Source of the DNA: Bacillota bacterium
GTDB lineage: Bacteria; Bacillota; Dehalobacteriia; UBA4068
Length of the DNA stretch: 43,760 nucleotides
Reading direction: 5' to 3'
Assembly: GCA_017440145.1 (NCBI GenBank)
Contig: JAFSHU010000110.1
Span: 1-43,760, forward strand
In this document: positions 6,519 to 43,651 of the stretch, piece after piece
Numbering within the stretch: the stretch's first letter is position 1
Layout of the letters: each line of letters begins with the position of its first letter
Program-made: the position numbers and the translations under genes
The notes under the pieces: model-generated
Seen by the model: only the letters and a program-made list of their open reading frames with translations
The model's database searches: none
Told to the model about the DNA's origin: nothing

Positions 6519-6546
6519 TAAAGGTAAGTTTGTATTGGAGGAGCAC

Positions 6547-7125: not shown

Positions 7126-7790
7126 AGCAGATATTTCCCAATCAGATACAGTGCAGGAATATGCAGGCAATAGAAGATATAGAAAGACCATTTGTTCCCG
7201 CGTCCTTTTTGCTGATTGTACATGAAGAGCAGAGGAATGGACAGCAGGCAATAGGCTTGGATCCACATGGGCCAGTGGGTGTAAACGTAAAGCCCGGTCA
7301 GCAGCAGCCAGGATAAGATCAGACCGCTGGGCTGCTGGAAAAAAAGATAAGCAGCAAGGATCAAAGCTACTCCGTAGGCGCCGTAATCGATCGGCAAAAG
7401 CTCTGCCAGCGCAAGAAGAACAAAGCTTGGCAGAATGGCCAGGATTCTGCTGGAAAAACGCTTCAGCAGCACCTGGTATACATATATTCCGGAAGCGCCC
7501 AAAAACAGAGTGGCAAAAATATTGATGTGATTCCCCATGCAAAGCTGATAAACAGGCTGATAGCAAAGCGCAAAAATCAGCAGCCGCAGAAGATAAAGGC
7601 CAATATTGCGGCTGTGATAACAGGCGTTTGCCGTCATAAAAGCAAAAATCGGGAAGGCCAGGCGGCCGATCCCGCGCAGAAGCATATTCTGGGGAAAAAG
7701 CAGCACGCCGATATGATCCACCAGCATGAAAATGCAGGCCATCCATTTTAGCTGTGTTGCTGTCAGGGAAAGAATGCTTTTGTTTTTCAT
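7122..7790 (-). CDS. TraX family membrane (acyltransferase-like) protein
   Basis: LKWMACIFMLVDHIG, GRLAFPIFAF, NIFATL, DYG, MYNQQKG, FYIFY..H; GGAGG RBS. Confidence 0.85.
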   Translation of the reverse strand: MKNKSILSLTATQLKWMACIFMLVDHIGVLLFPQNMLLRGIGRLAFPIFAFMTANACYHSRNIGLYLLRLLIFALCYQPVYQLCMGNHINIFATLFLGASGIYVYQVLLKRFSSRILAILPSFVLLALAELLPIDYGAYGVALILAAYLFFQQPSGLILSWLLLTGLYVYTHWPMWIQAYCLLSIPLLFMYNQQKGRGNKWSFYIFYCLHIPALYLIGKYLL

Positions 7791-7814
7791 AGTACCTCCG
7801 AAGGAGAGATTTTT

Positions 7815-8774: not shown

Positions 8775-9424
8775 AAGAGCATCTGATCATTTTTGATATG
8801 GATAACACGCTGTTGCAGTCCCATATCGATTTTCCATTGATGAAACAGACCGTCCATGCTTTGCTGGAAAGCCATGGGCTGGAACGATATAAGCGATTCT
8901 CCACTGCCAACACCATTTTGGCATTTACGGATTCGCCGGATTATGATGCGGATTTGGCAAAGCAAATGTGGCATGAGGTTGCCCTGCTGGAAAATGAGGG
9001 ACTGAAGCAGTCGGTTTTGGAACCCCTTGCAACGGAGGCCCTGGCCTATCTGGGAAAATATGCGGAATTGGCGGTTTTAACAAACAATACAGATTACAAT
9101 CTGGAGGAAAATTTGGGTAAGCTGGGCTTGCTGCCGTATCTGAGCTGCGTGGCGGGCCGTGACAGCGTACCCCGTTTGAAACCGGCTCCGGATGGCATGC
9201 TTTGGGTGGCTGCACAGTATCCGCAGATACCCTTGTCCAATGTGATTGCGGTAGGGGATGCCATCAACGATGCCCAGGCGGCTCATGCGGCAGGAATTCC
9301 TTTTGTGGCCTACAACCGCAGCCGCATGGAGGATTGGACAAAGTGGGAGTTTCCTCCCCGGCTGCAGCTTCATGGCTGGGATCGGAGCTCTTGCGACAGA
9401 TTGTTAGCCATGTGGAGGGCTTGA
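8771..9424 (+). CDS. HAD family hydrolase/phosphatase
   Basis: FDMDNTL, LTNN, KPAPDG, VGDAIND motifs; ATGA overlap with the upstream gene. Confidence 0.9.
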   Translation: MKEHLIIFDMDNTLLQSHIDFPLMKQTVHALLESHGLERYKRFSTANTILAFTDSPDYDADLAKQMWHEVALLENEGLKQSVLEPLATEALAYLGKYAELAVLTNNTDYNLEENLGKLGLLPYLSCVAGRDSVPRLKPAPDGMLWVAAQYPQIPLSNVIAVGDAINDAQAAHAAGIPFVAYNRSRMEDWTKWEFPPRLQLHGWDRSSCDRLLAMWRA

Positions 9425-9425
9425 T

Positions 9426-10301
9426 ATGGCGATGTACCGTATCAAAAAATTTGAGGATGCGGAGCCTGCTTCTATTTATCCGGAAGCTGAATACTGGCGG
9501 GAAACCCGTCCCGGGCAAGAGCGGGATCTGGATTTTGAGGAAATTGCAGACTTGAATGCTGCCAGCGAAGGGGTGGAGGAAGAGGAGCTTGAGCCCATTC
9601 GCTCCTTCCGTTCCAGAGTTTTGACTGCAGGTATTGCCGCTGTTTTGATCCTGGCTTTTGCCGTTTGGATCGGCTATTCTCTTTTTCCGCAGCGCTTTGA
9701 TTTCTCTCACTTGATCCGCTCTGCGCAGTTATCTCAGGATGAATCGCTCTCTGCATTGCAAAAGGCAGTGGTGGTAATCGAATCCACTGCCGGCAGCGGA
9801 ACGGGTTTTAATATCAGCCCGGATGGGATGATCGTCACAAATGCACATGTGGTTAAGGATGGCGGCATTCTGACGATTTCTTTCAGCCGGGAGGCTGGGG
9901 GGCAGGTTTTTTCTACGCGGGAGTATAAGCGAATCGAAGGTGTGGATCTGGCGCTCATTCCCATAGAAGGGGAGGATTTGCCGGCAGTGGCCCTGGCAGA
10001 GCAGCCAATAGAAAGTTTGGATCCCCGGGAAGAGAATTTGATTTTTATCGGAAGCCCTTTGGGCTACGACTGGACAATTTCAGAAGGGCAGCTGTGGGGA
10101 ATCGTCCCCATGGACGGCAGCGCTGCGATCTATTTCCATGGCCCGGTTCACCCAGGTTCCAGCGGTTCTCCGCTGTTTAATGAGCAGGCTCAGGTGATCG
10201 GCGTGGTTTACGCGATGCTGGGCAGGAAAGAAGACCAGCAAGGGCTGGCAGTTCCCATTTCATATTTGATTGAGGCTATGGAGGAAATGAAGAGTGAATA
10301 G
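9426..10301 (+). CDS. Membrane-anchored trypsin-like serine protease (no PDZ)
   Basis: Acidic N-terminus plus TM; GTGF, TNAHV, DLA, HPGSSGSPL. Confidence 0.85.
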   Translation: MAMYRIKKFEDAEPASIYPEAEYWRETRPGQERDLDFEEIADLNAASEGVEEEELEPIRSFRSRVLTAGIAAVLILAFAVWIGYSLFPQRFDFSHLIRSAQLSQDESLSALQKAVVVIESTAGSGTGFNISPDGMIVTNAHVVKDGGILTISFSREAGGQVFSTREYKRIEGVDLALIPIEGEDLPAVALAEQPIESLDPREENLIFIGSPLGYDWTISEGQLWGIVPMDGSAAIYFHGPVHPGSSGSPLFNEQAQVIGVVYAMLGRKEDQQGLAVPISYLIEAMEEMKSE

Positions 10302-11550
10302 CAAAAGATTGCCCTGTAGTGGGGATAAATTAGAATTGTTGGCAAGTGAATTTGGTACGCCTTTTCACATTTATGATGAAGCTGCGATCCGCAGCAATGC
10401 CCGGAAGCTGCTGAAAGCCTTCTCCTGGGCACCCAGATTCAAGGAGTATTATGCGGTGAAGGCTTTACCCAATCCCTATATTCTGGAAATATTGGCAGAG
10501 GAAGGCTGTGGAGCGGACTGCAGCTCCCTTGCAGAGCTTATGCTGGCGAAGGCAGTTGGCTTGGCCGGGAGTGATGTATGCCTGACCTCCAATGATACCC
10601 CATTGGTTGAGTTCCAGACAGCTCTGGAAATGAACAGCATCATCAACCTGGATGATATCACGCATATTGATTACCTGCTCAGCAAGGCCCGTTTGCCGGA
10701 ATTGGTATCTTTCCGCTATAATCCGGGCCCGCTTCGAAAAGGTGGCAACGAAATTATTGGCTACCCGGAGCAGGCGAAATACGGAATGACCGGTACGCAG
10801 CTTTTGGAGGCCATCGCCATCTGCCGCGATCTGGGTGTGGAGCGTTTTGGCATTCACACTATGATCGTATCCAATGAATTGCAAGCAGACTATTTCCGGG
10901 ATACGGCTGTGATGATGTTTGATATGGCCACGAAGATCAAAAAAATCATGGGCATATCCGTGGAATTCATCAATCTGGGCGGCGGCATCGGCATCCCCTA
11001 TACACAGGAAGAGGCTCCCGTGGATCTGCTGGGGCTGGGGAATAAGATCCGTTTGGCTTATGAAGAAATTATGCTTCCTGCCGGGCTGGGAAATGTGGCC
11101 CTTTGCATGGAGAGTGGACGTATGATGACCGGCCCTTACGGCTGGCTTGTCAGCCGGGCGATCCATAGAAAGGAAATTTATAAAAACTACATCGGACTGG
11201 ATGCCAGCATGGCAGATCTGATGAGACCCGCGCTTTATGGGGCCTACCATCATATTACGGTTGTTGGCAAGGAAGATCTTCCGAAGGATCATATTTACGA
11301 TATTACCGGTTCTCTTTGTGAGAATAACGATAAGTTTGCCATTGATCGAGAACTGCCAAAGGTTGACGTGGGGGACCTTCTGGTTATCCATGATACGGGT
11401 GCCCATGGCCATGCAATGGGATTTAACTATAACGGAAAATTGCGCTCCAAGGAGCTGCTTTTGAAAACAGACGGCAGCGTAAAGTTGATTCGCAGAGCAG
11501 AAACGATTGACGATTACTTTGCAACTCTGGATTACCCCGGCTTGGTTTAG
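10294..11550 (+). CDS. lysA: Diaminopimelate decarboxylase
   Basis: TPFHIYDE, YYAVKA, NLGGG, ESGR, LMRPALYG, GSLCENND, MGFNYN. Confidence 0.95.
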   Translation: MNSKRLPCSGDKLELLASEFGTPFHIYDEAAIRSNARKLLKAFSWAPRFKEYYAVKALPNPYILEILAEEGCGADCSSLAELMLAKAVGLAGSDVCLTSNDTPLVEFQTALEMNSIINLDDITHIDYLLSKARLPELVSFRYNPGPLRKGGNEIIGYPEQAKYGMTGTQLLEAIAICRDLGVERFGIHTMIVSNELQADYFRDTAVMMFDMATKIKKIMGISVEFINLGGGIGIPYTQEEAPVDLLGLGNKIRLAYEEIMLPAGLGNVALCMESGRMMTGPYGWLVSRAIHRKEIYKNYIGLDASMADLMRPALYGAYHHITVVGKEDLPKDHIYDITGSLCENNDKFAIDRELPKVDVGDLLVIHDTGAHGHAMGFNYNGKLRSKELLLKTDGSVKLIRRAETIDDYFATLDYPGLV

Positions 11551-30624: not shown

Positions 30625-32340
30625 ATGCGCATTTTAACAGCACAGATGAATATTATTCCCGGGCAGCCTGCCCAAAATCTGCAGCAGATGCTGGAGTGGA
30701 TCTGCCTGGGCAGGGAACGGGGGGCAGAGCTGATTTTATTCCCGGAGCTGGCTCTGAGCGGGGCTCTTTTAGGTGATCTGCTCTATCGTGACAGTTTTCT
30801 TGAGGAATGCAAATTGGCCGCTGAGAAGCTGGCGGCAGCTGCGGAGGGCATTTCTGTTGTTTTCACCAATCCCTGTCTGGATGCAGAAGGATTGCTGCGT
30901 AATCAGGTTTTCTGGGCTTCTCAGGGGCAGCTGCAAATGGTATCCACACCGCTGGCTCCGGCTTTTCTTCCCGGGGCTTATGATGCTTTCGAAAAAGAGG
31001 CTCCCATGGAGCTGCTTTCCTTATCAATTGATGGGAAAGAGCGCCGTATCGGCTTTTTGCTGGGGGATTATGCGCTGAATGATTTCCCGGCAGAAGCAGA
31101 AAAAGCCGATCTGTTGATTGATTTGAGCCAGCGCCCACTGTTTTTGGATCGTGATTTGACGCCGCCTCTGGCTCTCTCGGCAGAATATATTTCTGTAAAT
31201 GCCTGCGGATTGGTGAACAGTGGCTCAAGCTGCTATCTTTTGGCAGGAAACAGCCGCTATTATGCACAGGGCTCTTTGCTGGCTGCGGCACCTTATTTTC
31301 AGCCCGGTCTGTATGATCGGGAAAGTCGTGCTGCCTTCCCGGAAGAGGGTGAGCTGCTGCGGGATGCTCTGGTGGCGGGTACCTCTGCCTTTTTGCAGCA
31401 GATCAACTGCAAAAAAGCAGTCATCGGCCTCAGCGGCGGAATCGATTCCGCTCTTGCTGCCTGCATTTATACGCAGGCTCTGGGGCCGGAAAATGTTTAT
31501 TTGATCAGCATGCCTACCCAGTATAACAGTGCAACCACAAAAAATCTGGCTGCTGACCTGGCTGCCGCTCTGGGCTGCCCTTTCGCCGTGATTCCGGTGG
31601 AGGAAAGCGCCATTCGTTTGAGAGAGGATATCCAAACAGCAAGCTTCCTGGACGCTGCCGGTAGGGAAAGCCGCCTGCTCATAAGCGACTTGGGCTGGGA
31701 AAATCTGATGGCCAGAGAGCGCGGACGCATTCTGGCTGCTGCTTCCTCGGCAGTGGGGGGCATTTTTACCTGCAATGGGAACAAAGCTGAAATGACAGTA
31801 GGCTATGCAACCTTTTATGGGGATTTGGCCGGTGGTCTTGCTGCCCAGGCGGACCTGTGGAAACATCAGGTATACCAGGCCTGCAGGGCTTTCCAAAAAA
31901 TCTTTCCCACGGCCCCGCTGGATAAAATAGCTGCAATTCGACCTTCCGCAGAATTATCCTGGAAGCAGGCAGTGGATGAGGGGCTTGGGGATCCATTGCA
32001 GTATGATTACCATGATTATTTGTTCCGCTACTGGGTGGAGAAAAATGGCGGTCTTTTGGAAGCGCTGGAGGCTTATGCGGCGGATACGATTGATGCCTTA
32101 TTGGGCTGCAAACCTGGCTTGACAAAGCAATATTTCCCCACGGCCGATCAGTTCGCTTCAGATATGGAGAGATGGTGGAAACAATACCGGGGTATCGGGG
32201 TTGCCAAGCGGATTCAGGCGCCGCCGCTGCTGGCATTGAGTTCCCGGCCTTTTGGGGAGGCCTCCCCCCAGAGTCAGCTTTCTGTGTGGTTTGATGAAGC
32301 CTATTTACAGCGCAAGGAGCAGTTATGTCGGATCGTTTAA
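30625..32340 (+). CDS. nadE: NAD+ synthetase with N-terminal nitrilase-fold domain (glutaminase triad apparently incomplete)
   Basis: FPELALSG; SGGIDS, ENLMARERG, NKAEMTVGYATFYGD, PSAEL. Confidence 0.9.
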   Translation: MRILTAQMNIIPGQPAQNLQQMLEWICLGRERGAELILFPELALSGALLGDLLYRDSFLEECKLAAEKLAAAAEGISVVFTNPCLDAEGLLRNQVFWASQGQLQMVSTPLAPAFLPGAYDAFEKEAPMELLSLSIDGKERRIGFLLGDYALNDFPAEAEKADLLIDLSQRPLFLDRDLTPPLALSAEYISVNACGLVNSGSSCYLLAGNSRYYAQGSLLAAAPYFQPGLYDRESRAAFPEEGELLRDALVAGTSAFLQQINCKKAVIGLSGGIDSALAACIYTQALGPENVYLISMPTQYNSATTKNLAADLAAALGCPFAVIPVEESAIRLREDIQTASFLDAAGRESRLLISDLGWENLMARERGRILAAASSAVGGIFTCNGNKAEMTVGYATFYGDLAGGLAAQADLWKHQVYQACRAFQKIFPTAPLDKIAAIRPSAELSWKQAVDEGLGDPLQYDYHDYLFRYWVEKNGGLLEALEAYAADTIDALLGCKPGLTKQYFPTADQFASDMERWWKQYRGIGVAKRIQAPPLLALSSRPFGEASPQSQLSVWFDEAYLQRKEQLCRIV

Positions 32341-33182
32341 AAATTTTAGCCCCGGCAAAGATCAACTGGAGTCTGGAGATTGTTGGTCAGCGGGAGGATG
32401 GATATCATTTGCTGCGCTCGATCATGCAGCAGATTGCCCTATATGATGAAGTTGAGATCAAGGAGTCTTCCGCGGATCATTGCTTTTGTTCAGGTTTGAT
32501 GGATCAGGAAAACCTGGCTTTTCGCGCCTGGCTGCACCTGAAAGAGCAGCTGTGCCTGAAACAGTGCCTGGAAATTCGCATCGAAAAGAAAATCCCTCTT
32601 GGCGCTGGTCTGGCCGGTGGCAGTACGGATGCCGCTGCAGTTTTACTGGGGGCAAATCGCCTTCTGGCTTTGGGGCTTCCTGAAACGGAGCTTTTGTCCC
32701 TTGCGCTGCCACTGGGGGCAGATATTCCCTTTTGCATTTCCGGGGGTGCATGCCTCGTTGAGGGGATCGGAGAAAAATTAACGCCCCTGCCGGAAGTGCA
32801 AACCTCCTGGCTGGTTCTGGCGAATCCCGGCTTCCCTGTATCCACGCCAATGGTTTATCGGGAATATGACCGGCTCGGCAGCTCTGCCAGGCCGGATCTG
32901 GCTGGGGTGCGGGCTGCATTGGAAACGAACTCGAGCCAGCGCCTGACGGAATGCTGGGGAAATCATCTTTATGATGCAGCCTGCAGTCTTTATCCTGCTT
33001 TAAACAGAATGACAGAGGCTTTTTCTGCTTTGGGGCTGCCTGCTTTAATGAGTGGCTCCGGGGGGACTTTTTTTGCGCCTTGCTCCGGTGAAAAGGAGGC
33101 CAGGGAAGCAGCAGATCGCCTGCGGATGTTTTTCCCCTGGGCTATGGCAGTTTCAACTTTGATGACAGAAAAGCAGATGTAA
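32325..33182 (+). CDS. ispE: 4-diphosphocytidyl-2-C-methyl-D-erythritol kinase
   Basis: APAKIN, DGYH, KKIPLGAGLAGGSTDAA, GADIPF, MSGSG. Confidence 0.95.
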   Translation: MSDRLKILAPAKINWSLEIVGQREDGYHLLRSIMQQIALYDEVEIKESSADHCFCSGLMDQENLAFRAWLHLKEQLCLKQCLEIRIEKKIPLGAGLAGGSTDAAAVLLGANRLLALGLPETELLSLALPLGADIPFCISGGACLVEGIGEKLTPLPEVQTSWLVLANPGFPVSTPMVYREYDRLGSSARPDLAGVRAALETNSSQRLTECWGNHLYDAACSLYPALNRMTEAFSALGLPALMSGSGGTFFAPCSGEKEAREAADRLRMFFPWAMAVSTLMTEKQM

Positions 33183-33196: not shown

Positions 33197-35197
33197 ATGG
33201 AAAAAGCTAAGATCAGGAAAACGGCAGGGGAGGCAGAAGCTGCCCGCTCCTCTTTTTCAAATTCAAAATTTTGGCTGCGTGTGCTTTTGTGGCTGGGAGT
33301 CATTTTTTTTCAGGAGCTCTACCTGCATTTTATGATCTATCCGGGGGCTACTGCCGCAGAGAATTATTTCTATCTGGGGATGTTTTCCGTTTCCTATGCC
33401 TTGCTCGGCGCGTTTCTCTGCTCCCTGGCATCAGGCAGATGGAATTATATTCTGAGCCTGCTGCTGTGCGCTTTTGTTTCGATCCTCTACATAGCCCAAT
33501 ATGTATATCATTTGTTTTTTAAAACGCCTTTGCTGGTCTTTTCGATATTTAACAGCGGGCAGGTAACGGAATTTGCCGGGGAAGCGATTCGAATGATCGT
33601 AAGCCATTTGCCGCAAATTCTGGTTTTCCTGCTGCCCTTGATTTTGATTGCTGTTTTTGGCCGCAAAAGCTTTCCCGCCTGTAAATGGAAAGGCAGCTGG
33701 CTGCTGCTCATTTTGTCCATTTTATTTTATTGCGGTGCTTTAGCCGTTTTGCCCATCTCCGGCTCCAGTGCGCCAAACTCCGCATATAACTGTTTCTATA
33801 ATGAGAACAACCCCCTTCCTACTCAGCAGAAGCTGGGCGTGCTGACTTTTATGCAGCTGGATGCCCGCCGAACCCTTTGGGGCTTTGCACCGAAGGATCT
33901 TCCCCTGGCAGTGGAACTTCCGGAAGAGGATGAGCAGACTGATGCAGAGCAGGGAGAGACTCTGCCGGATTATGGCTATAATGCCATGGACATTGATTTC
34001 GAAGCGCTGCTGGCGAACGAAAGCGATGAGACCATCCGAAATATGCATATCTATTTTTCTTCCCTGGAGCCTTCCCGAAAAAATGAATATACCGGGAAAT
34101 TCGCAGGAAAGAATTTGATCGTGATCACGGCGGAAGGATTCTATTATCCCCTGTTGGAAACGGGTATGTTTCCTTCTGTAAAACGTCTGGCAACGGAAGG
34201 CTTTGAGTTTGCCAATGCCTATACGCCATTGTGGAATGTTTCCACCAGCGATGGGGAATACGCTGTCATGAGCTCTTTGCTCCCGGCCAGTGGGGTGTGG
34301 AGCTTTGCCCGCTCTGCGGAAAACTACATGCCCTTTGCCTTTGGTAATCAGTTTTCTGCTTTGGGCTATGAAAGCGTATATGCTTTTCATAACCACAGCT
34401 TTGATTATTATGACCGGCAGCTGTCTCATCCGAATCTGGGCTATACTTACCTGGGGCGGGGAAATGGCCTGGATATTACAGAGCAGTGGCCGGAAAGCGA
34501 TATTGAGCTTATGGAGGCATCCATACCCTATTACATAAATAGTGACAGCTTTCATGTTTATGATTTGACGGTATCCGGTCACCTGGAATACAATTTCAGC
34601 GGAAACATGATGGCGGCAAAGCATAGGGGAGAGGTCGAGCACCTGAATTATTCCGAGGAAGTAAAAGCCTATATTGCCTGCAATCTGGAGCTGGAATACG
34701 CAGTTCAATATCTTTTCGAGCAGCTGGAGGCAAGCGGCAAGCTGGATGATACGGTGATCGTTCTTTCTGCCGATCATTATCCCTATGGCTTATCGGATGC
34801 AGCCATTGATGAATTGGTGGGGCATCCGGTAGAACGAAATTTTGAGCTGTATCGGAACACCATTGCGATTTGGAGTGCGGATCAGGAGCATATGCTGATC
34901 GATACCCCGATCTGCAGCCTGGATATCCTGCCTACGGTCTCCAATCTCTTTGGGCTGGAATATGACTCCCGTTTGCTGATGGGGCGGGATGTTTTCTCTG
35001 ATGCGCTTCCTCTGATTGCCTTTAACAATCGCAGCTGGATTACGGATCAGGCCAGATATGATGCGACAACGGATGTTTTATATGGCGATGTTTCTCAGGA
35101 ATATGTGGATGCGATAAATGAGATCGTGAATGGAAAGTTCCTTTATTCCGCAGATATTTTGTTCAATGATTATTACCGTCTGGTTTTCGGAAAGTAG
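33197..35197 (+). CDS. LTA synthase (LtaS) family / phosphoglycerol transferase
   Basis: About 5 N-terminal TM helices plus a sulfatase-fold domain: GKNLI...E, TSDGE (catalytic Thr), SGH, ADH, DILPT...L.G. Confidence 0.85.
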   Translation: MEKAKIRKTAGEAEAARSSFSNSKFWLRVLLWLGVIFFQELYLHFMIYPGATAAENYFYLGMFSVSYALLGAFLCSLASGRWNYILSLLLCAFVSILYIAQYVYHLFFKTPLLVFSIFNSGQVTEFAGEAIRMIVSHLPQILVFLLPLILIAVFGRKSFPACKWKGSWLLLILSILFYCGALAVLPISGSSAPNSAYNCFYNENNPLPTQQKLGVLTFMQLDARRTLWGFAPKDLPLAVELPEEDEQTDAEQGETLPDYGYNAMDIDFEALLANESDETIRNMHIYFSSLEPSRKNEYTGKFAGKNLIVITAEGFYYPLLETGMFPSVKRLATEGFEFANAYTPLWNVSTSDGEYAVMSSLLPASGVWSFARSAENYMPFAFGNQFSALGYESVYAFHNHSFDYYDRQLSHPNLGYTYLGRGNGLDITEQWPESDIELMEASIPYYINSDSFHVYDLTVSGHLEYNFSGNMMAAKHRGEVEHLNYSEEVKAYIACNLELEYAVQYLFEQLEASGKLDDTVIVLSADHYPYGLSDAAIDELVGHPVERNFELYRNTIAIWSADQEHMLIDTPICSLDILPTVSNLFGLEYDSRLLMGRDVFSDALPLIAFNNRSWITDQARYDATTDVLYGDVSQEYVDAINEIVNGKFLYSADILFNDYYRLVFGK

Positions 35198-35208: not shown

Positions 35209-35880
35209 ATGCTGAGAATTTTGCTTGCAGAGGATAATACAGAGCTGCGCCACCTGATGAAGATTCGTCTGAATCGTGCTGGCTATGATGTGGTGGAAGC
35301 TGGGGATGGCCTGGAAGCTCTGGATATTCTGGCAAAAACGCAGGTGCATCTTTTGATTGTAGATGTGATGATGCCGAATATGGATGGCTGCGAGTTGACA
35401 GCCGCCCTGCGCAGTGCGAATATCGATACGCCGATTTTGATGGTTACCGCAAAGGGGGGCCTGGATGATAAAAAAACGGGTTTCCATGCTGGAGCCGATG
35501 ATTATCTGGTCAAACCTGTTGATATGGATGAAATGCTTCTGCATATTGAGGCGCTTCTTCGCCGTTCCCGCATCTCAAGGGAAAAGGAAATGGTTATCGG
35601 CTCCACGGTTCTGAATGAGGATCGTTTGAGTGTCACCTGCGGCGCGCAGGAGATTCTTCTGCGCAGAAAGGAGTTCCAGCTGCTGTTTTTGCTGCTCTCT
35701 TATAAAGGGAGGATCTTTACCAGACAAATGCTGATGGACGAGATTTGGGGATATGACAGTGAAACGGACCAGAGAACTGTGGATGTGCATATTAAACGCT
35801 TGCGGGAAAAGTTCAGCGACAATGCAGATTTTTCGATTCAGACGGTACGTGGTCTGGGATATAAGGCGGTGGAAAAATGA
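35209..35880 (+). CDS. OmpR-family response regulator, HssR-like
   Basis: AED, DVMMP, VTAK, GADDYLVKP, DQRTVDVHIKRLREK, TVRGLGY. Confidence 0.93.
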   Translation: MLRILLAEDNTELRHLMKIRLNRAGYDVVEAGDGLEALDILAKTQVHLLIVDVMMPNMDGCELTAALRSANIDTPILMVTAKGGLDDKKTGFHAGADDYLVKPVDMDEMLLHIEALLRRSRISREKEMVIGSTVLNEDRLSVTCGAQEILLRRKEFQLLFLLLSYKGRIFTRQMLMDEIWGYDSETDQRTVDVHIKRLREKFSDNADFSIQTVRGLGYKAVEK

Positions 35881-36935
35881 GGCCTCGTTACCATATCCGC
35901 TGGAAGGTCATTCTTTGGGGTATGATGGTCATTGTGGGCAGCTCAATCTTATGCTGGGCGCTCACGCCATTTATTGAGACGCTTCTGTCAAATTACATCA
36001 GCTCTGCTGAGCGGGGGCGCTTCATCATTTGGATCAGCCAGGGTTTGACGTACATCGTTTTTTTCATCTTCGCCTTGCTCTTGGCGATTATTACCTCCAA
36101 AACGATGGTAAACCGTGTGTTGGAGCTATCTCTGGCAGCGAAAGAAATTGCGCGCGGAAATTTCTCTGTTCGTGTTTCCGATATAGATCGGCACGATGAG
36201 GTTTATCAGCTGGCGCTTGATTTTAACCGCATGGCGGAACAGCTGCAAAGAAATGAATATATGCGGAAAGACTTCATATCCAACGTTTCCCATGAGATTA
36301 AAACACCGTTATCTGTTATCAATGGCTATGTGGATCTTTTGCTGGAGGAGCCCGAAGCGGCTGAAGGGAAGGAATATCTGGAGATCATCAGCCGGGAAAG
36401 CAAGCGCTTGCTGCGGATCAGCCAGAATATGCTGCATATTTCCCAGCTGGATAACGATAGCATCCGGAAAACAAATGAAACCTTTCGTTTGGATGAGCAG
36501 CTGCGGCAGGTAATTCTTCTGCTGGAACCTCATTGGTCTTCGAAAGATATTGAGCTGGATATTAACCTGGATGAATGCTTTTATACCGGCGATCCTGAGC
36601 TGTTGGTGCAGGTATGGGTAAATCTTTTGGATAACGCGATTAAATTTACCCCTGCCTCAGGAAAAATTGCCATTGGATTGCAGGAGCATGACCGCATTCA
36701 GGTTACCGTTGCTGATACCGGCATCGGGATGGATCAGGAGGCGCAGCAGCGGATCTACGAGCAGTTTTATCAGGGGGATCGTTCCCGCAGAAGAGAGGGC
36801 GCTGGCCTGGGCATGTCGATCGTAAAAAGAATTATTGATTTGCACGAAGGAGATATCTCGATTCACAGCGCCTTGGGCGAAGGTACAAAAATTGATGTAT
36901 TTCTGCCAAAGAAAAACAAGCCCTCAGTGCATTAA
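35877..36935 (+). CDS. HAMP-domain sensor histidine kinase with two TM helices and a very short outer loop (HssS-like)
   Basis: FISNVSHEIKTP, NLLDNAIKF, DTGIG, FYQGD.SR, GAGLG; ATGA overlap with the response regulator. Confidence 0.93.
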   Translation: MRPRYHIRWKVILWGMMVIVGSSILCWALTPFIETLLSNYISSAERGRFIIWISQGLTYIVFFIFALLLAIITSKTMVNRVLELSLAAKEIARGNFSVRVSDIDRHDEVYQLALDFNRMAEQLQRNEYMRKDFISNVSHEIKTPLSVINGYVDLLLEEPEAAEGKEYLEIISRESKRLLRISQNMLHISQLDNDSIRKTNETFRLDEQLRQVILLLEPHWSSKDIELDINLDECFYTGDPELLVQVWVNLLDNAIKFTPASGKIAIGLQEHDRIQVTVADTGIGMDQEAQQRIYEQFYQGDRSRRREGAGLGMSIVKRIIDLHEGDISIHSALGEGTKIDVFLPKKNKPSVH

Positions 36936-36952
36936 ACGGAGGGCTTGTTTTT
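36912..36952. terminator. Bidirectional terminator overlapping the kinase stop codon
   Basis: AAAAACAAGCCCTC...GAGGGCTTGTTTTT 14-bp stem. Confidence 0.8.
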
Positions 36953-37001
36953 ATATTGGATATATAATGGCGTTAAACGATAAATTCTCTTTATAAAAGC
37001 C

Positions 37002-37841
37002 TTATTTCATATGGATCTCGCCGCTGAAAGGCGTTTCCAATAATTTGGGGTCACGCAGATATTTCTGCAGGGAGCGGAAAGCAAAAGAGAAATAGTGACC
37101 GGAGCAGATGCGTTCATCCATGACCACACCAACCGGCATGCAGCGCGTCAGCTTCACCTGGCCATCTTTGCCGGCGCTGGGAATTTCACGAAGATTCCCA
37201 AGGGCGCAAAGCACGCTGGTGGTACCAAAATTATAAATGTGATGATAAATATGGTTCGTGCGGATGCTGGCCAGATTTGTAATCGTCATGCTGGAATGGA
37301 AGGGACTCAGATCAATGATGCTTTTGGGTAGAAGACCATGCTTATCCATCCACATGAGCACAGGAACGCCAAAACGGAGCAGGCCGGGGATTTTTGTCAT
37401 GAAGTTCATGAATTTATCCAGAGAATTGGTAATATCTTCTGCTGCGGTGTTGATTTCAATAAATTTATCTACCTTTTTGCAAACGGAGAAAATATCCTCG
37501 CCCGGGGTGAAATAAAGTTTTCCCATCGTGGAATTATCTGCCCCCGGTTTTAAGGTCACCATGGCAATCGCCAGCTCGTTGCGGTCATAAATGGTTCTGT
37601 TTACAACAAAACGATTCAAGAGAGGGAATTCTGCAATGACCTGCACATAAGCTGCCAGGAACAGGCTCAAATGGGAAACATGAAAATTCTCTTTGCGTTT
37701 CTCATTGATATATTTTTGCATTGGCTCCACGGGAATATCCAATGTAATCATGTTCATGGCGTCATTGCGTTCTTTCATGATGTGAGGTACAAAAAGATAC
37801 ATAAGCTCTGCGTTTTTTACTTTCGTACCATCTTTTCGCAT
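37002..37841 (-). CDS. Stand-alone 2-oxoacid dehydrogenase E2/CAT-fold acyltransferase-like protein
   Basis: FPLLNRFV, TITNLAS, DERICSG in place of DHRxxDG; no lipoyl domain; AGGAGG RBS. Confidence 0.7.
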   Translation of the reverse strand: MRKDGTKVKNAELMYLFVPHIMKERNDAMNMITLDIPVEPMQKYINEKRKENFHVSHLSLFLAAYVQVIAEFPLLNRFVVNRTIYDRNELAIAMVTLKPGADNSTMGKLYFTPGEDIFSVCKKVDKFIEINTAAEDITNSLDKFMNFMTKIPGLLRFGVPVLMWMDKHGLLPKSIIDLSPFHSSMTITNLASIRTNHIYHHIYNFGTTSVLCALGNLREIPSAGKDGQVKLTRCMPVGVVMDERICSGHYFSFAFRSLQKYLRDPKLLETPFSGEIHMK

Positions 37842-37921
37842 AATCTACCTCCTATAAAATATACCATAAAAAATATTTCGAGCTTTATCTCAAAAATCCT
37901 ACAGAAGAGTCCAGGTTTTTA

Positions 37922-37976
37922 GTTCATATTTGATTCATATATCGTTCATAAATAGTTAAAGTATCTCACCTATACT
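37922..37976 (+). promoter_or_regulatory. Triple direct repeat (HssR-box-like) with downstream -10; probable activator-dependent promoter of the sulfotransferase operon
   Basis: GTTCATATT-TG-ATTCATATA-TC-GTTCATAAA (11-bp period); TATACT at 37971-37976 with no consensus -35. Confidence 0.7.
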
Positions 37977-38041
37977 AATTAAGATTGTGAAGATTTTTCA
38001 GTAATTATTTTTTGAATATTAACACATTAGGAAGATGTTTT

Positions 38042-39169
38042 ATGGCTAAAAAAACTGTTATTCCTCTGCTGAATTTCAGCCACATAATGCTGGGCTGCCG
38101 CTTTGATATTTGGCTTCATTTATTGATAAAAAATCGTTTCCGGGTTTCTTTGCGAAATATCCCGCAGGCTGTTTTGATTACGCTCGTTACTTTGCTGCTG
38201 TTTCCTTTTGCGATTTTGGAGCGCTTGCTTTTGGCAGCGGCCCTGAAACGGCAAAAGGTGAAGTCCCCATTGTTTATTCTGGGTCACTGGCGCAGCGGCA
38301 CCACATATTTGCAGAACATGCTGAGCAAAGATACGCAGTTCGGGTATTTTGACCCGGTCAGCACGGTGACCTGCCACAATTCCTGGCTGCTTCGCCCTCT
38401 TTTGGCTCTTCTGGAAAAGGGCGCGATTTCAGATGCACGGCCTATGGATAATATGGAATACAGCATGGATCTGCCAATGGAAGAGATGCTGGCTGTAAAT
38501 GCATCCACCCAGGTTTCCATTGCCCATATGCTTTGTTTTGCTGAGGATTACCCCCATTATATCAATCAGGCCTTCGTGGACGAGCTGCCTGAGAAAAGCC
38601 GGGAGAACTGGGATCAGGTTTATCGCTATTTGTTAAAAAAGCAAACTTTTCTCTGCAAAGGGAAATCCCTGCTTTTGAAGTCTCCGGATTCCACCTGCCA
38701 CGCAGCGGAGCTTTACCGGCTTTTTCCGGATGCAAAATTTATCAACATCTACCGCAACCCTTATAAAGTCATCCCTTCCACCATCAATATGTTTAACAAG
38801 CTGTTTGCTTTTCAATCTCTGCAAAATCCTCCGGATCCACAGGTTGTGGAGGATACTGTCCTGCGTCTCTTTAAACGGGCTTATGAAAAGCTATTCGCAG
38901 ATATGAAAATGATTCCTTCCGGGCAGCTGGTGGAAATTCAGTACGAAGAATTTGTGAAGCAGCCCATTGCTTATGCGGAACGAATTTATCAATCTTTGGG
39001 CATTCCCGGCTTTGAAAAAGCCAAACAGAATTTTCAGGCTTATGTAGATTCGCAGATTGGGTATCAGAAAAATAAATTCAATGTGCGGCCCGAACTGGTG
39101 GCACGGATCAATAAAGAGTTAAAATTTTATTTCGAGCATTATGGCTACGAAATGATGCAGGAGGCTTAA
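38042..39169 (+). CDS. PAPS-dependent sulfotransferase (Sulfotransfer_3; Stf3/Bacteroides SULT-like), membrane-anchored
   Basis: 5'-PSB loop ILGHWRSGTT, RPMDNM, LKSP, 3'-PB FINIYRNPYKVIPS, YEEF; N-terminal hydrophobic helix. Confidence 0.9.
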   Translation: MAKKTVIPLLNFSHIMLGCRFDIWLHLLIKNRFRVSLRNIPQAVLITLVTLLLFPFAILERLLLAAALKRQKVKSPLFILGHWRSGTTYLQNMLSKDTQFGYFDPVSTVTCHNSWLLRPLLALLEKGAISDARPMDNMEYSMDLPMEEMLAVNASTQVSIAHMLCFAEDYPHYINQAFVDELPEKSRENWDQVYRYLLKKQTFLCKGKSLLLKSPDSTCHAAELYRLFPDAKFINIYRNPYKVIPSTINMFNKLFAFQSLQNPPDPQVVEDTVLRLFKRAYEKLFADMKMIPSGQLVEIQYEEFVKQPIAYAERIYQSLGIPGFEKAKQNFQAYVDSQIGYQKNKFNVRPELVARINKELKFYFEHYGYEMMQEA

Positions 39170-40051
39170 ATGGATCATTTGGCGAAACTGGAAAGTAAAA
39201 GCATCTATATTTTGCGGGAAGCTTATGCTGCTTTCAATAATTTGTGCATGCTGTGGTCGATCGGAAAGGACAGTACAGTGCTTCTTTGGCTGGCACGCAA
39301 AGCCTTTTTGGGGCATGTACCGTTCCCTTTGGTGCATATTGACACGCATTATAAAATTCCGGAAATGATTGCTTATCGTGATCAGCTGGCAAAGGATTAT
39401 CATCTCTATATGGTATACGGCGAAAACAGGGAGGCTCTGGAAAGCAAGCAAACCTATCCGGATGGGAATACGACCCGTGTGGAATGCTGCCGTTTGCTGA
39501 AGACAGAGGCTCTCACCAATACATTGAACGGCAGCTGGCCGCGTTATCGTCTGAATCTGGAAACCGGCCTTTACGAGCTGGACAGCAACAAAGAGGCTTA
39601 TACCGGTGTTATCGTAGGAGCGCGTTCCGATGAAGAAGGCTCCCGCTCCAAGGAGCGTTATTTTTCTCCCCGGGATTCTCATAACGATTGGGATCTGGAT
39701 GACCAGCCTCCGGAATTCTGGAATCAATTTAAAACGGATTTCGCCCCCAATACTCATGTGCGGATCCATCCTTTGCTGGATTGGACTGAATTGAACATTT
39801 GGGAATATATCGAGCGGGAGAACATCCCCACGGTTTCTTTGTATTACGATCAGGGCGATGGCAAGCGCTATCGTTCTTTGGGCTGTGCGCCCTGCACAGG
39901 CCCCATTGAATCCACATCCAAATGCCCGGCAGATATTATCGAGGAGCTGCGTTCCGGCAAGCTGAGCAATATCGCGGAGCGGAGCGGCCGCGCGCAGGAT
40001 AAAGAGGATGGCGGCGGCTTGGAAACCTTGCGCCGCAACGGCTACATGTAA
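39170..40051 (+). CDS. cysD: Sulfate adenylyltransferase subunit 2
   Basis: [46 protein letters not shown]. Confidence 0.95.
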
Positions 40052-40090
40052 GAGATAATCCTTATTTCTCAGATAAAGGTGATAAAAAAC

Positions 40091-41971
40091 ATGACGAAGG
40101 ATTTACAAAAAAGCGCCTTACCCCAGGAAGAAATGATGAATGTGGTCATGGTTGGCCATGTGGATCACGGAAAAAGTACCGTAATTGGCCGTTTGCTGGC
40201 AGATACAGATAGCTTGCCGGAGGGTAAGCTGGATATGGTTCGGGAGAATTGCAAGCGCAATTCCAAGCCCTTCGAATATGCCTTCCTGCTGGATGCTTTG
40301 AAAAACGAACAGGCACAGGGTATCACCATTGATACAGCCCGCTGCTTTTTCAAGACGCAAAAGCGCCGCTACATTTTGATCGATGCTCCCGGTCACATTG
40401 AATTTCTGAAGAATATGGTGACCGGTGCCAGCCGTGCAGAGGCTGCCATGTTGGTCATCGATGCTGCCCGGGGGGTAGAGGAGAATACCCGGCGGCACGG
40501 TTATTTCCTCTCTATGCTGGGGATTCGCCAGGTCGTGGTTTTGGTAAACAAAATGGATCTGGTGGACTATAAAGAATCCGTATTTCAGGATATCAGCCAG
40601 CAGTATGCAGAGTTTTTACGGAAAATTGATATCCAGCCCCAGGCCTTCATCCCGGTCAGCGGCTACGAAGGGGATAATATTGCAAATCATTCAGATCGTA
40701 TGCCCTGGTTCAAGGGGAAAAATTTGCTGGAGCAGCTGGATGAGTTCCAAAACGCTGTTCCTGCGGATCTTCAGCCGCTTCGTCTGCCGGTGCAGGGTGT
40801 TTATAAATTCACGGAGAACAATGATAGCCGCCGTATCATCGCAGGTACGGTGGAAGCCGGCACCCTGCAGCAGGGGGATCAGATCGTCTTCTATCCTTCC
40901 GGGAAACGCACTGCGGTAAAGACCCTGGAACGCTTCAATGACAGCTGTGAACGTCCCTTTATTTCCCAGGAAGCAGCCGGCTTTACCATGACGGATCAGA
41001 TTTATGTGAAGCGGGGAGAAATTGCCTGCCGGGCAAATGAGCCTGCTCCGCATACGGGGGTACGCCTGCGGGTCAATCTTTTCTGGCTGGGAAAGGCCAG
41101 ATTGGAAAAAAACAAGAATTACCTCTTTAAATGCGGGACCGCCAAGGTTTCCATGCAGCTTGAGCAGGTAGAGCGCGTGGTAAATGCCTCTGACCTTTCC
41201 TGCGTGAACCGCCAATATATCGAAAAAAACGAAGTTGCAGAGTGTACCCTGACGCTGGATAGCCCTATCGCTTTTGATTTAGCCGGATCTTGCGAAGCCA
41301 GCAGCCGTTTTGTTATTGTGGACAGCTACGAAATCGCAGGTGGGGGCATTATTACCGAAGCGCTGGAATCGGAGCATTTTGATAAGCGGAATATTCGCTG
41401 GACAGCCGGCAGCGTTGGCATAAAGGAACGTTGTCAGCTCAATGGCCACAAAGGTTTGATCGTTTGGATGACGGGGCTTTCCGGCTCCGGGAAGAGTTCC
41501 ATTGCGGAGGATGTGGAGCGGCAGCTGGTTGCGGCCGGCATTCATACATATGTTTTGGACGGAGATAAGCTGCGGCATGGGCTGAACAGTGATTTGGGCT
41601 TCAGTCAGCAGGATCGGGAAGAAAATGTCCGCAGAACAGCCGAGCTGGCTGCCCTGCTGGAGGATGCAGGCCTGGTGACCATTGTAACCCTGATTTCTCC
41701 CTTTGCGGAGGGCCGGGCCTTTGCTCGCAGCCGCAGCCGGCAGGAGTTTGTCGAGGTTTACGTGAAGGCACGTTTGGAAACCTGCATCAAGCGTGATCCT
41801 AAGCAGCTTTATCGAAAGGCTCTGGAAGGGCAAATCTCCGATTTTACCGGGATCAGCTCCGCTTACGAAGCACCGACAGAGCCGGATTTGGTTCTGGATA
41901 CGGATATTTGGTCTGAAGAGGAGTGCGTGGAAGTGCTTTTCAATAACATTATGACCAGGGTAGCCGAATAA
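40091..41971 (+). CDS. cysNC: Bifunctional sulfate adenylyltransferase subunit 1 / APS kinase (CysNC, NodQ-like)
   Basis: [24 protein letters not shown] GTPase motifs; C-terminal [32 protein letters not shown]. Confidence 0.95.
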
Positions 41972-42001
41972 AATAGGCCAAAGGCTTTTGGGAGGTGCCC
42001 T

Positions 42002-42733
42002 GTGTCGGAGTTTTTGCTCTATGTTCTGATCGGCTTTTTGGCTCAGTTGGTGGATGGTACGGCAGGGATGGCCTATGGCTTGAGCTGCCGCACCTTCCTG
42101 AAAGTATTCTTTGGGATGCCCGCGAGCATTATCAGTGCTGTGGTGCATTGGGCAGAAGCACCGGTCAGTCTGGTTTCCGGAATCTCCCATTTTTCTTTGG
42201 GCAATGTGGATCGGTCTTTGCTGCTTCGCTTGCTTTTGCCGGGCGTTCTTGGGGGATTGTGCGGCGTCTATCTGGTGGTCCAGATCGGCTCCCATTTTGA
42301 ACATTTGATTTCCGTTTACCTGCTCATCATGGGTCTTCTGATCCTCTGGCGGGCTTTGCGGCCGAGTCGTCCACGGCATACGGTGCCGAAGCGTTTTTTG
42401 ATCCCGCTGGCTCTGATTGGTGGCTTTTTGGACGCAAGCGGCGGTGGAGGATGGGGGCAAATCGTAGGAGGAACCCTGCTTGCCGGTGGAAATGATGCAA
42501 AGAAAACCATTGGCAGCGTGAATGTGGCAGAAGCCTTTGTTACATTGGTTGAGGCTGTGGCTTTCTTTGCTATGCTGGGAGAGATCAAAAGCTATCTTCC
42601 GATTATTGGCGGCCTGGTTACAGGGGGGATTTTATCCGCACCTCTGGCTGCCTGGTGCTGCATGAAGGTTCCCACGCGCCCGCTTCTGATTGCTGTCGGC
42701 GTTTTAATTATTTTGTGTAACCTCTCTTTTTGA
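42002..42733 (+). CDS. TauE/SafE (TSUP) family sulfur-anion transporter
   Basis: AQLVDG..GMAYG and FLDASGGGGWG motifs; multiple TM helices; GTG start with GGAGG RBS. Confidence 0.88.
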   Translation: MSEFLLYVLIGFLAQLVDGTAGMAYGLSCRTFLKVFFGMPASIISAVVHWAEAPVSLVSGISHFSLGNVDRSLLLRLLLPGVLGGLCGVYLVVQIGSHFEHLISVYLLIMGLLILWRALRPSRPRHTVPKRFLIPLALIGGFLDASGGGGWGQIVGGTLLAGGNDAKKTIGSVNVAEAFVTLVEAVAFFAMLGEIKSYLPIIGGLVTGGILSAPLAAWCCMKVPTRPLLIAVGVLIILCNLSF

Positions 42734-42768
42734 GGCAGAGCGGATTTTTATACCAAGGAGTGATTTTT

Positions 42769-43146
42769 ATGATCAAAGGAATCCACCATATTTCCCTGCG
42801 GGCAAATGGTCCTCTTGCTTTTGAGAAGGCGATTGCTTTTTATACAGAACTATTGGCTTGCCGTCCGCTCCGCAGATGGGGTGAGCAGCGCGGGATCATG
42901 CTGGATGCCGGAAACTGCCTTCTGGAGATCCTTTCCACCGGCCCGGAATCGGATCAGGATGGGCATTGGCAGCATCTGGCCTTTGCTGTGGAAGATGTGG
43001 AAGCCATGACAGAAAAAATTCGCCATTCCGGTTATGAGATTACGAAAGAAGTAAAGCGCCTGACTTTGGGGGAGGATTACCCGATCTGCATCTCGTTTTG
43101 CAGAGGGCCGCTGGGTGAAGAAATCGAGTTTTTCCAGGAACTGTAA
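42769..43146 (+). CDS. VOC / glyoxalase family protein
   Basis: IHHISL, FYTELL, LEI, HLAFAVEDV, GP.GEEIEF; AAGGAG RBS. Confidence 0.88.
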   Translation: MIKGIHHISLRANGPLAFEKAIAFYTELLACRPLRRWGEQRGIMLDAGNCLLEILSTGPESDQDGHWQHLAFAVEDVEAMTEKIRHSGYEITKEVKRLTLGEDYPICISFCRGPLGEEIEFFQEL

Positions 43147-43181: not shown

Positions 43182-43484
43182 ATGATCACCTGCACATTTT
43201 CTGCTCTGCCTCCTTTGGCATCTTTATCGCTGGTTTGGTTTTTGCTTTTTTCCGGCATCGCTTTGCTTCTGACCTGCTATGATAAGGCAGCTGCACAGAA
43301 AAAAGGTCAATTCCGCATACCGGAAAAGACTTTGCTCTGGGTTGCAGCTTTGGGCGGGGCTTTTGTTATGTATTTGACTATGCGTTTGATCCGTCATAAG
43401 ACTTTGCATAAAAAATTTATGATCGGCCTGCCTCTTTTGTTTGTTCTGCATCTGGGGCTGCTTTCTTTGAGACTCTTTTTCTAA
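43182..43484 (+). CDS. DUF1294 family small membrane protein
   Basis: YDK..A.....RIPEKTL....ALGG......M..IRHKT.H.KF. Confidence 0.88.
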   Translation: MITCTFSALPPLASLSLVWFLLFSGIALLLTCYDKAAAQKKGQFRIPEKTLLWVAALGGAFVMYLTMRLIRHKTLHKKFMIGLPLLFVLHLGLLSLRLFF

Positions 43485-43612: not shown

Positions 43613-43651
43613 CAGAGGCGGGCGGCGGAAGCCGTCCGCCTCTGTGCTTTT
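43613..43651. terminator. Strong GC-rich terminator hairpin
   Basis: CAGAGGCGGGCGGC-GGAA-GCCGTCCGCCTCTG then TGCTTTT, between convergent genes. Confidence 0.8.

Follow-up and report, generated by a model that had tools for sequence, protein, structure and literature searches.

A sulfotransferase with its own PAPS supply in a genome of Dehalobacteriia: a probable module for lipid sulfation

To what use is activated sulfate put in a bacterium whose genes for the synthesis of 3′-phosphoadenosine-5′-phosphosulfate (PAPS) stand in one row with a sulfotransferase? The question is raised by a stretch of 43,760 nucleotides from a Bacillota bacterium of the class Dehalobacteriia (contig JAFSHU010000110.1 of assembly GCA_017440145.1), called the window in what follows, in which a sulfotransferase gene is followed on the same strand by cysD, a cysN-cysC fusion (cysNC), a TauE/TSUP permease gene and a VOC gene. 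The window is the whole contig C45 of the metagenome-assembled genome G000 (1.59 Mb, 168 contigs, 84% complete); labels with G, C and L denote genomes, contigs and loci. An earlier note on this DNA, made from the letters alone, proposed that the PAPS is dedicated to sulfating a hydrophobic acceptor, in the absence of sulfate reduction and by a chemistry uncharacterised in Clostridia. To judge from gene content and gene context, the most plausible reading is that the PAPS is reserved for the sulfotransferase and does not go to assimilation. The locus is probably an inducible, self-supplied and dedicated module for the sulfation of lipid hydroxyls, of which the two-component regulation, the import of sulfate through TauE and the acceptor are the inferred parts.

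Linkage of the PAPS genes to the sulfotransferase

The sulfotransferase gene (38042-39169, + strand) encodes a Sulfotransfer_3 protein (PF13469, 122.4 bits against a cut-off of 27, with positions 1-214 of the 216 of the profile covered) that is PAPS-dependent by homology. Its stop codon TAA (39167-39169) directly abuts the ATG of cysD (39170-40051, +), as the earlier note had described, and the AGGAGG ribosome site of cysD sits within the 3′ end of the sulfotransferase gene. CysD, the small subunit of sulfate adenylyltransferase, matches NF003587 with 342 bits (cut-off 195). In the cysNC gene that follows (40079-41971, +), the GTPase subunit CysN (TIGR02034, 342.9 bits, cut-off 336.1) is joined to an adenosine 5′-phosphosulfate (APS) kinase domain that is intact, as had been claimed (TIGR00455, 218.3 bits, cut-off 138.7). 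The model for the fused protein, NF004035, gives 617 bits, under its cut-off of 715, and translation of this gene may start at ATG 40091 instead of GTG 40079. Next come tauE (42002-42733, +; PF01925, 102.2 bits, cut-off 32.6), with a GGGAGG ribosome site 5′ of it, and the gene of a protein with VOC/glyoxalase fold (42769-43146, +; PF00903, 47 bits, cut-off 20.6). Family scans thus place all five genes above cut-off, at the positions and in the families first assigned to them. Each start across the operon is preceded by a ribosome site, and the intergenic gaps measure 0-35 bases.

In regard to the conservation of this arrangement, public genomes were scanned for relatives of the sulfotransferase and the best 80 loci of 592 relatives were kept: 45 from Bacillota, 40 of which have flank enough to judge, and 35 from other phyla, mostly Thermoplasmatota, with 29 assessable. 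Neighbouring genes were assigned by tblastn and by Pfam on chosen open reading frames (ORFs). Of the assessable loci, 20 of the 40 from Bacillota and none of the 29 from other phyla have the genes cysD, cysN and cysC directly 3′ of the sulfotransferase, so the linkage seen in the window is conserved in half of the Bacillota loci judged. Many Oscillospirales-type Clostridia accordingly hold an enzyme that travels with its own PAPS supply. In 16 of the 20 linked loci cysD is 78-87% identical to that of the window, and in the other four it is only 35% identical, which indicates that the linkage arose with two cysD lineages; in relatives, cysD homologues of the window type beside the sulfotransferase show 78-95% identity.

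Co-occurrence was followed in 41 related genomes, 25 of them of the same family as G000. Within the family, matches to the sulfotransferase (103-123 bits), to this type of CysD (136-141 bits) and to a strong APS kinase (202-206 bits) occur in the same five of the 25 genomes. Four of the five have all three on a single contig; in G004, the APS-kinase match is on another short contig. This cysD-cysNC type is therefore present in all five sulfotransferase-bearing genomes of the family as opposed to none of the other 20.

CysD, CysN and CysC are at the same time the classical first steps of sulfate assimilation, and it could be argued that they feed a reductase that was missed or is of an unknown type, with the sulfotransferase as a side user of PAPS. 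Such an explanation appears very improbable. No CysH-type reductase was found in any of the ten linked genomes searched, one of which is the assembly of a cultured isolate: cysD is the sole full-length match to PAPS_reduct (PF01507), and weak partial second matches were obtained in G000 (19.6 bits) and G023 (28.1 bits). The gene aprA was found in neither G000 nor G003, the search through the rest of G000 recovered no NIR_SIR sulfite reductase and no cysK, and an Rfam scan of the whole window detected no S-box or other riboswitch. Assimilation would also leave the tie between this cysD-cysNC type and the sulfotransferase within the family without an explanation.

Several observations nevertheless pull in the other direction, away from a fully dedicated PAPS pool. 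Four of the ten linked genomes checked carry AsrC-like NIR_SIR genes elsewhere, on other contigs, which makes an unknown route from PAPS to sulfite conceivable, and the absences in G000 are provisional, as the assembly is 84% complete; both would favour assimilation. A phosphatase for 3′-phosphoadenosine 5′-phosphate was not identified either, since there was no Inositol_P match and DHHA1 was found only in frames of 597 and 739 residues. On the other hand, 2 of the 20 block-free genomes of the family have NIR_SIR genes too, which thus appear to be independent of the block. Two of the AsrC-like genes are located at G003:C7:7449-8036, in a genome of the same genus as G000, and at G006:C60:16871-17458, in one of the same family, and both genomes carry the block. 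With such a gene in the same genus, the absence of sulfite reductase from G000 is not secure. The original statement that sulfate is not reduced thus holds for APS and PAPS reductases, whose absence is consistent across relatives, and is provisional for sulfite reductase. For annotation, the block flags genomes in which cysD and cysNC should not be taken as a sign of sulfate assimilation.

The end of the operon is less conserved. For the VOC gene, ATG 42769, preceded by an AAGGAG site, is a more likely start than TTG 42730, so a 4-base overlap with tauE is doubtful. It is followed by a peripheral sixth gene (43182-43484, +) for a small membrane protein of the DUF1294 family, assigned by family scan and hydrophobicity. 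The sole strong terminator-like hairpin of the operon, G+C-rich and followed by a T-run, lies past DUF1294 at about 43615-43650 (+) and is the likely operon end. It was the only element used from a promoter and terminator scan whose overall yield was at chance (11 against 11.0 expected and 12 against 10.8). The junctions are compatible with a single transcript from the sulfotransferase through DUF1294. The VOC gene had been counted as a member of the operon, and it is indeed present on the same strand; however, both it and DUF1294 are kept within the genus only, which makes them, on this distribution, genus-level passengers and not part of the core.

The enzyme, its control and its sulfate supply

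The motifs GHWRSGTT, RPMDNM and RNPY..S, reported earlier, are present in the translated sulfotransferase and prove invariant or nearly so across 20 aligned homologues. Residues G81, W83, R84, G86, T87, T88, R238, P240, Y241 and S246 are invariant, and we take them to represent the phosphosulfate-binding loop and the Arg and Ser that bind the 3′-phosphate. Homologues of similar length number more than 2,300, and an AlphaFold model built from 20 sequences (pLDDT 88.8) has the sulfotransferase fold. The hydrophobic N-terminal segment, likewise noticed before, comprises residues 39-69, reaches 2.21 on the Kyte-Doolittle scale, passes the classical threshold for a membrane segment and forms part of a 34-residue helix in the model.

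The closest characterised relative is ErSULT of Eubacterium ramulus ATCC 29099, a Sulfotransfer_3 enzyme (PMC13449962, JACS July 2026). As described in the available parts of that paper, the purified enzyme with PAPS sulfonates 3- and 16-hydroxyhexadecanoic acid, E. ramulus cultures produce a putative sulfated C19 fatty acid, and the native substrates of ErSULT are still to be defined (PMC13449962). Since, according to the same parts, its purification needed no detergent, the N-terminal helix is not necessarily a membrane anchor. The gene in locus L017 was taken to be that of ErSULT because it is the sole PF13469 gene in the E. ramulus ATCC 29099 genome. The window enzyme is 47% identical to this presumed ErSULT over 367 residues (E 4e-123), above the family criterion of at least 40% identity to ErSULT given in the available text of PMC13449962.

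In a tree of 82 homologues, built by a quick method with SH-aLRT support only, the window sequence and the ErSULT clade fall within one clade of 33 rows (support 96). The ErSULT clade itself (16 rows, support 100) sits inside a set of sequences with cysD-cysNC linkage, which L022 and L024, the two basal members of the clade, have retained, so that the unlinked state in Lachnospiraceae and Eubacterium looks derived. In L017 (8789-13208), a transglutaminase-like gene lies 5′ of the presumed ErSULT gene, and phasin-like and ABC1/UbiB-type kinase genes lie 3′ of it; the latter two kinds of genes are lipid-associated. With a relative 47% identical and of the same clade already characterised with PAPS, according to the parts of PMC13449962 at hand, the chemistry is not one uncharacterised in Clostridia, as the earlier note had supposed. 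Its broader proposal of PAPS dedicated to a hydrophobic acceptor keeps its footing in the linkage, the co-occurrence and the lack of a CysH-type gene in the genomes searched, and a lipid-like acceptor would fit ErSULT.

Comparison of the model with solved structures gave the mycobacterial STF1 and STF9 as top fold matches (Foldseek, E 7.9e-11, TM 0.60-0.65), and phmmer on solved structures gave the same best two (2.7e-6). Ranks 3-7 are held by tyrosylprotein sulfotransferases with E values of about 1e-6, which raises the possibility that tyrosine of a peptide or protein, or a polysaccharide, is sulfated in a manner like that of RaxST of Xanthomonas. The Rax system combines PAPS genes with a two-component system, and the logic of the locus resembles it. 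Such acceptors seem highly unlikely, however, given that the tyrosylprotein matches are much weaker than those to STF1 and STF9, that ErSULT uses hydroxy fatty acids, and that no genes for a precursor peptide, a peptidase-exporter or a glycosyltransferase are conserved at the locus. A search of G000 for Sulfotransfer_2 was uninformative, as control genomes had no match either.

Upstream of the operon lies a two-component system, composed of an OmpR/PhoB-family response regulator (35209-35880, +; Response_reg and Trans_reg_C domains) and a sensor histidine kinase (35877-36935, +; HAMP, HisKA and HATPase Pfam domains). The kinase has two hydrophobic segments, residues 9-30 and 48-79, separated by a loop of some 20 residues. 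Pairs homologous to the two flank the sulfotransferase block at 10 of the 20 linked loci, and at L097 too, with identities in relatives of 45-69% for the response regulator and 43-65% for the kinase; no NCBIfam equivalog reached its cut-off for either protein. Inspection by eye showed a hairpin with a T-run at about 36920-36952, where the automated scan made no call. Between the two-component system and the operon, in the opposite orientation, stands the gene of an acyltransferase homologue (37002-37841, -), and the gap of 200 bases that separates it from the sulfotransferase gene holds three exact copies of TTCATA, 11 bases apart (37923-37950, +). This candidate site for the response regulator overlaps the -35 position and is followed, 20 bases on, by a -10-like hexamer TATACT (37971-37976).

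The repeats are rare elsewhere. With at most one mismatch, the two-hexamer pattern occurs three times in the window, two of the occurrences being exact and both of these at the promoter, against 0.58 expected; the whole genome holds three exact matches, and the promoter triple is the only one scoring at least 16 of 18 in the 1.59 Mb. In relatives, pairs matching at least 11 of 12 positions within 220 bases 5′ of the operon were found at 11 of 23 loci, compared with 36 of 3474 background windows from the same loci, and almost all loci with such pairs carry the two-component system. This comparison has to be read with the reservation that it was not blind, the motif having been taken from the window and the regions of the loci having already been inspected, which weakens the case for regulation. 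Sequence evidence of this kind nonetheless strongly suggests that the operon would be activated by this two-component regulator. One exact repeat, at C93:10732, was set aside as chance, as it sits at the junction of two same-strand ORFs.

The surroundings are otherwise ordinary. A gene for a 666-residue LtaS-like protein (33197-35197, +), with five hydrophobic segments and a sulfatase-fold domain (PF00884, 1e-16), ends 12 bases before the response-regulator gene, so that co-transcription is possible; it was not found beside the sulfotransferase block in the other loci. On its 5′ side are genes for an NAD synthase with a nitrilase-like N-terminus and for a GHMP kinase (30625-33182, +), and these housekeeping genes place the sulfotransferase block in an ordinary chromosomal context. 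The G+C content falls to 0.42-0.45 across 37001-39000, and the only Rfam match in the window is a tRNA gene (1846-1916, +).

Furthermore, the block includes an anion transporter in many loci, this being TauE in at least ten. TauE directly follows cysNC in the window and in L096, L097, L027, L029, L034, L036, L031, L043 and L044, and L045 has an ORF of TauE size at the same position. Other loci hold other transporters: in L020, L023 and L026 a SulP-STAS permease lies 5′ of the sulfotransferase and an NMT1-type ABC system 3′ of cysC, and in L005 a gene for a ChrA-type protein follows cysC. Three distinct anion-transporter families, TauE, SulP-STAS and ChrA-type, are thus met at the block, and a SulP homologue is encoded elsewhere in the genome of the window. 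As far as the available texts go, a TauE-family protein restores sulfate uptake to E. coli lacking cysA (PMC11535334), and TSUP proteins are discussed as sulfate transporters (PMC5840216). By analogy with this precedent, and with alternative anion transporters in the same place, we infer that the permease is a sulfate importer, which would describe it better than the label "sulfite exporter".

Clues to the acceptor

The probable module would then work as follows. The kinase, whose extracellular loop would be very short, would phosphorylate the OmpR-type regulator, which would bind the TTCATA repeats and so switch on the operon; the divergently transcribed acyltransferase gene may come under the same activation. 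Sulfate would be imported by the TauE/TSUP permease and converted into APS by CysD together with the CysN part and into PAPS by the CysC part. The ErSULT-family enzyme would transfer the sulfo group to the hydroxyl of a lipid-like acceptor, and PAPS would not be reduced for cysteine synthesis. As for the acceptor, one tentative candidate is a long-chain amino-alcohol or N-acyl lipid, suggested by a pair of lipid genes on another contig of G000 and by the acyltransferase homologue. Free or bound hydroxy fatty acids, by analogy with ErSULT, form a second candidate that we hold just as tentatively, and other hydrophobic hydroxyl compounds would make up the remainder.

The acyltransferase homologue is a stand-alone single domain of 279 residues with the E2 catalytic-domain fold. 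Its match to PF00198 (6e-9) covers only the C-terminal part of the E2 catalytic domain, and its predicted model (pLDDT 74) matches E2 cores in Foldseek (E 2e-13); sequence searches of the Atlas and the PDB returned generic E2 labels only. While the fold is that of an E2, the catalytic His motif and the lipoyl and subunit-binding domains are not present. Homologues stand beside the block in the window, L096, L099 and L004, within about 3 kb on its 3′ side in L032, L034 and L035, and in L005 inside the operon, between the sulfotransferase and cysD. In the 25 family genomes, orthologues with 56-85% identity are confined to the five that carry the sulfotransferase.

The richest context is that of L034, from Oscillospiraceae, where one same-strand run encodes a response regulator, a histidine kinase, an acyl carrier protein (ACP), the sulfotransferase, CysD, CysNC, TauE, a serine palmitoyltransferase-like (Spt-like) protein, a 3-ketodihydrosphingosine reductase-like (KdsR-like) protein and the acyltransferase homologue. 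The ACP has 83 residues, and the stop of its gene overlaps the sulfotransferase start. For the alpha-oxoamine synthase of this run the best NCBIfam model is serine palmitoyltransferase (526 bits, cut-off 640), and for its short-chain dehydrogenase/reductase (SDR) it is 3-ketodihydrosphingosine reductase (235 bits, cut-off 400). In G000, outside the window, contig C117 holds an adjacent Spt-like (NF047600, 558 bits) and KdsR-like (NF049977, 215 bits) pair, and such pairs are adjacent in all 12 loci fetched. All ten family genomes with a high-scoring Spt-like gene also carry an acyltransferase homologue, and in G046 a TauE gene lies in a same-strand cluster with the pair.

Several further structures were observed around such pairs. 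The cluster of G046 (L103, 3996-10292, +) comprises genes for an aminotransferase I/II, TauE, an unknown protein of 252 residues, an aminotransferase III, and the Spt-like and KdsR-like proteins, and its product may be a long-chain base that is modified or bears sulfur. On C117 of G000 (L101, 6152-9421, -), two half-size ChrA-family genes lie directly 5′ of the pair; the same order is found in G003, G005, G016 and G022, with a possible role in lipid or anion transport. The ChrA-type pair was considered as the sulfate importer of the system and was rejected as specific to it, because it precedes the Spt-like and KdsR-like genes also in G005, G016 and G022, which lack the sulfotransferase. Locus L076 of Thermoplasmatales (5967-11071) has a pair of Spt-like (47% identity) and KdsR-like (37%) genes at a distance of 2 kb from a sulfotransferase homologue (33%). 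Members of the sulfotransferase family abound in Thermoplasmatota, from which most of the 35 non-Bacillota loci kept were drawn.

It is possible, although we would call it doubtful, that a sphingoid or ceramide-like lipid is sulfated in some Clostridia, yielding a sulfate-ester equivalent of the sulfonolipids of Bacteroidota. The Spt-like enzyme with a dedicated ACP and the KdsR-like reductase would build the long-chain base, and the E2-fold acyltransferase, with Glu for the catalytic His, would act as N-acyltransferase. The ErSULT-family enzyme would then add sulfate from locally made PAPS, and a membrane-sensing two-component system would switch the process on. If true, this would reveal which class of compounds ErSULT-family enzymes sulfate natively, and a new type would be added to the bacterial ceramide synthases.

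A number of facts count against this proposal. With regard to the genes of the long-chain base, the C117 scores stay under the NCBIfam cut-offs (558 against 640 and 215 against 400), and no TTCATA motif was detected near C117 in the genome-wide motif scan. Spt-like genes of at least 508 bits were found in only 9 of the 20 linked genomes, no high-scoring one was found in E. ramulus or E. oxidoreducens, and six family genomes have the Spt-like/KdsR-like pair without the sulfotransferase. The extra aminotransferases of G046 suggest that the amino-acid substrate there could be other than serine. With regard to the acyltransferase, all seven full-length copies carry DERICSG, in which Glu replaces the catalytic His of the E2 motif DHRxxDG, more distant copies (27-39% identity) turn up in 11 of the 20 sulfotransferase-free genomes of the family, and the family is far wider than that of the sulfotransferase, with 5161 hits and a generic annotation. 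A universal coupling of the sulfotransferase to Spt-like genes was rejected on the basis of the same distribution among linked genomes and in E. ramulus. The Spt-like/KdsR-like lead to the acceptor, as far as gene context can tell, is real but not general.

The acceptor could alternatively come from outside the cell. According to this explanation, the operon serves the inducible detoxification or modification of exogenous hydroxylated lipids, as an analogue of phase-II metabolism in which sulfated products become soluble and exportable. The kinase would sense membrane-active hydroxy fatty acids, sterols or bile acids of the host or the diet, and the acyltransferase and Spt-like genes would be unrelated neighbours. 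A kinase with only a short loop between its hydrophobic segments would suit such sensing, and 11 of the 20 linked genomes, as well as E. ramulus, lack the Spt-like gene. In the parts of the literature at hand, the hydroxy fatty acids that ErSULT sulfonates were added ones, added hydroxy fatty acids were sulfonated also by two of six fecal cultures (PMC13449962), and BT_0416 of Bacteroides sulfates dietary cholesterol, its genes being cholesterol-responsive (PMC9417993). The genes found after cysNC in some loci, an SDR in L011 and L013 or an esterase in L032, would also agree with the processing of lipids from outside. We still consider this origin unlikely, because the acyltransferase homologue inside the operon of L005, and the ACP, Spt-like and KdsR-like genes inside that of L034, argue for a substrate that is built and not scavenged, and no lipid uptake system is conserved at the locus. 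The SDR genes that take the place of a permease gene directly after cysNC (L011, 9995-10759; L013, 13806-14651) encode proteins 31% and 27% identical to the KdsR-like SDR of L034, and they could supply the hydroxyl that gets sulfated.

The module sketched above bears on questions beyond this genome. Host immunity and metabolism are affected by sulfated lipids of microbes, among them cholesterol sulfate, sulfonolipids and sulfated hydroxy fatty acids, and the gene context described here, namely the ACP, the Spt-like/KdsR-like pair and the acyltransferase homologue, gives testable candidates for the native substrate of ErSULT. A dedicated sensor and regulator imply, in addition, an inducing signal to look for.

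Comparison with known systems

A close relative of the enzyme, ErSULT, and an analogous cluster design, that of Bacteroides, are already published. What appears to be new, and was absent from the earlier note, is the upstream two-component system with its promoter repeats and the divergent acyltransferase homologue; the gene-context links to the Spt-like/KdsR-like pair appear to be new as well. A limited literature search brought up nothing that describes this operon, its two-component control or the link to the acyltransferase. The words "operon", "gene cluster", "neighbor" and "transmembrane" do not occur in the available text of PMC13449962. ErSULT and the window enzyme share the Pfam family, the length, the N-terminal region and the invariant motifs, and the models of both resemble mycobacterial STF1, in the case of ErSULT according to the accessible part of the same paper. 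They differ in that the gene of ErSULT is not beside PAPS genes, cysD of E. ramulus being on another contig, and in that the E. ramulus genome has no Spt-like gene.

The gene set BT_0411-BT_0416 of Bacteroides, in which a proposed sulfate importer and PAPS genes stand beside a lipid sulfotransferase (PMC9417993, as far as available), follows the same logic when the two are compared by description: a transporter and PAPS synthesis adjoin a Sulfotransfer_3 enzyme. The Bacteroides genes belong to another phylum, however, and neither a two-component system nor an acyltransferase is reported for them in the available text of PMC9417993. In the portions at hand of PMC13449962, the E. ramulus enzyme is called "nonhomologous" to homologues of BtSULT.

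Among solved structures, STF1 (2zq5) and STF9 (2z6v) are the best matches by structure and by sequence, at an identity of only 17%, and the substrate of STF1 is given as unknown in the available text of PMC13449962. The fold is further matched by the sulfotransferase domains of CurM (4gbm, E 3e-6) and of an olefin synthase (4gox, E 4.5e-5). Domains of the CurM type sulfate 3-hydroxyacyl-ACP, which echoes both the activity of ErSULT on a 3-hydroxy acid and the ACP gene of L034. These domains differ in being parts of polyketide megasynthases, in which sulfate serves as a leaving group; decarboxylative elimination is not suggested here.

Finally, the pathways of sphingolipids and of sulfonolipids such as capnine and sulfobacins offer the broadest comparison. 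A 2023 review lists no Clostridia in its table of sphingolipid producers, in the part available (PMC10626005), and a limited search by title and abstract brought up no sulfated ceramides or sphingoid bases from gut Clostridia. Several features set the present genes apart: the Spt-like and KdsR-like scores are under the NCBIfam cut-offs, the acyltransferase has an E2 fold, unlike the known type of bacterial ceramide synthase, and the proposed product would bear a sulfate ester derived from PAPS, whereas the sulfonate of sulfonolipids derives from cysteate. Shared with these pathways are the adjacent Spt-like/KdsR-like pair, present in every locus examined for it, and, in L034, the grouping of an ACP and an acyltransferase in one cluster with that pair. 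If the proposed product were correct, the two would also have in common their outcome, an anionic sulfur-bearing sphingoid lipid.

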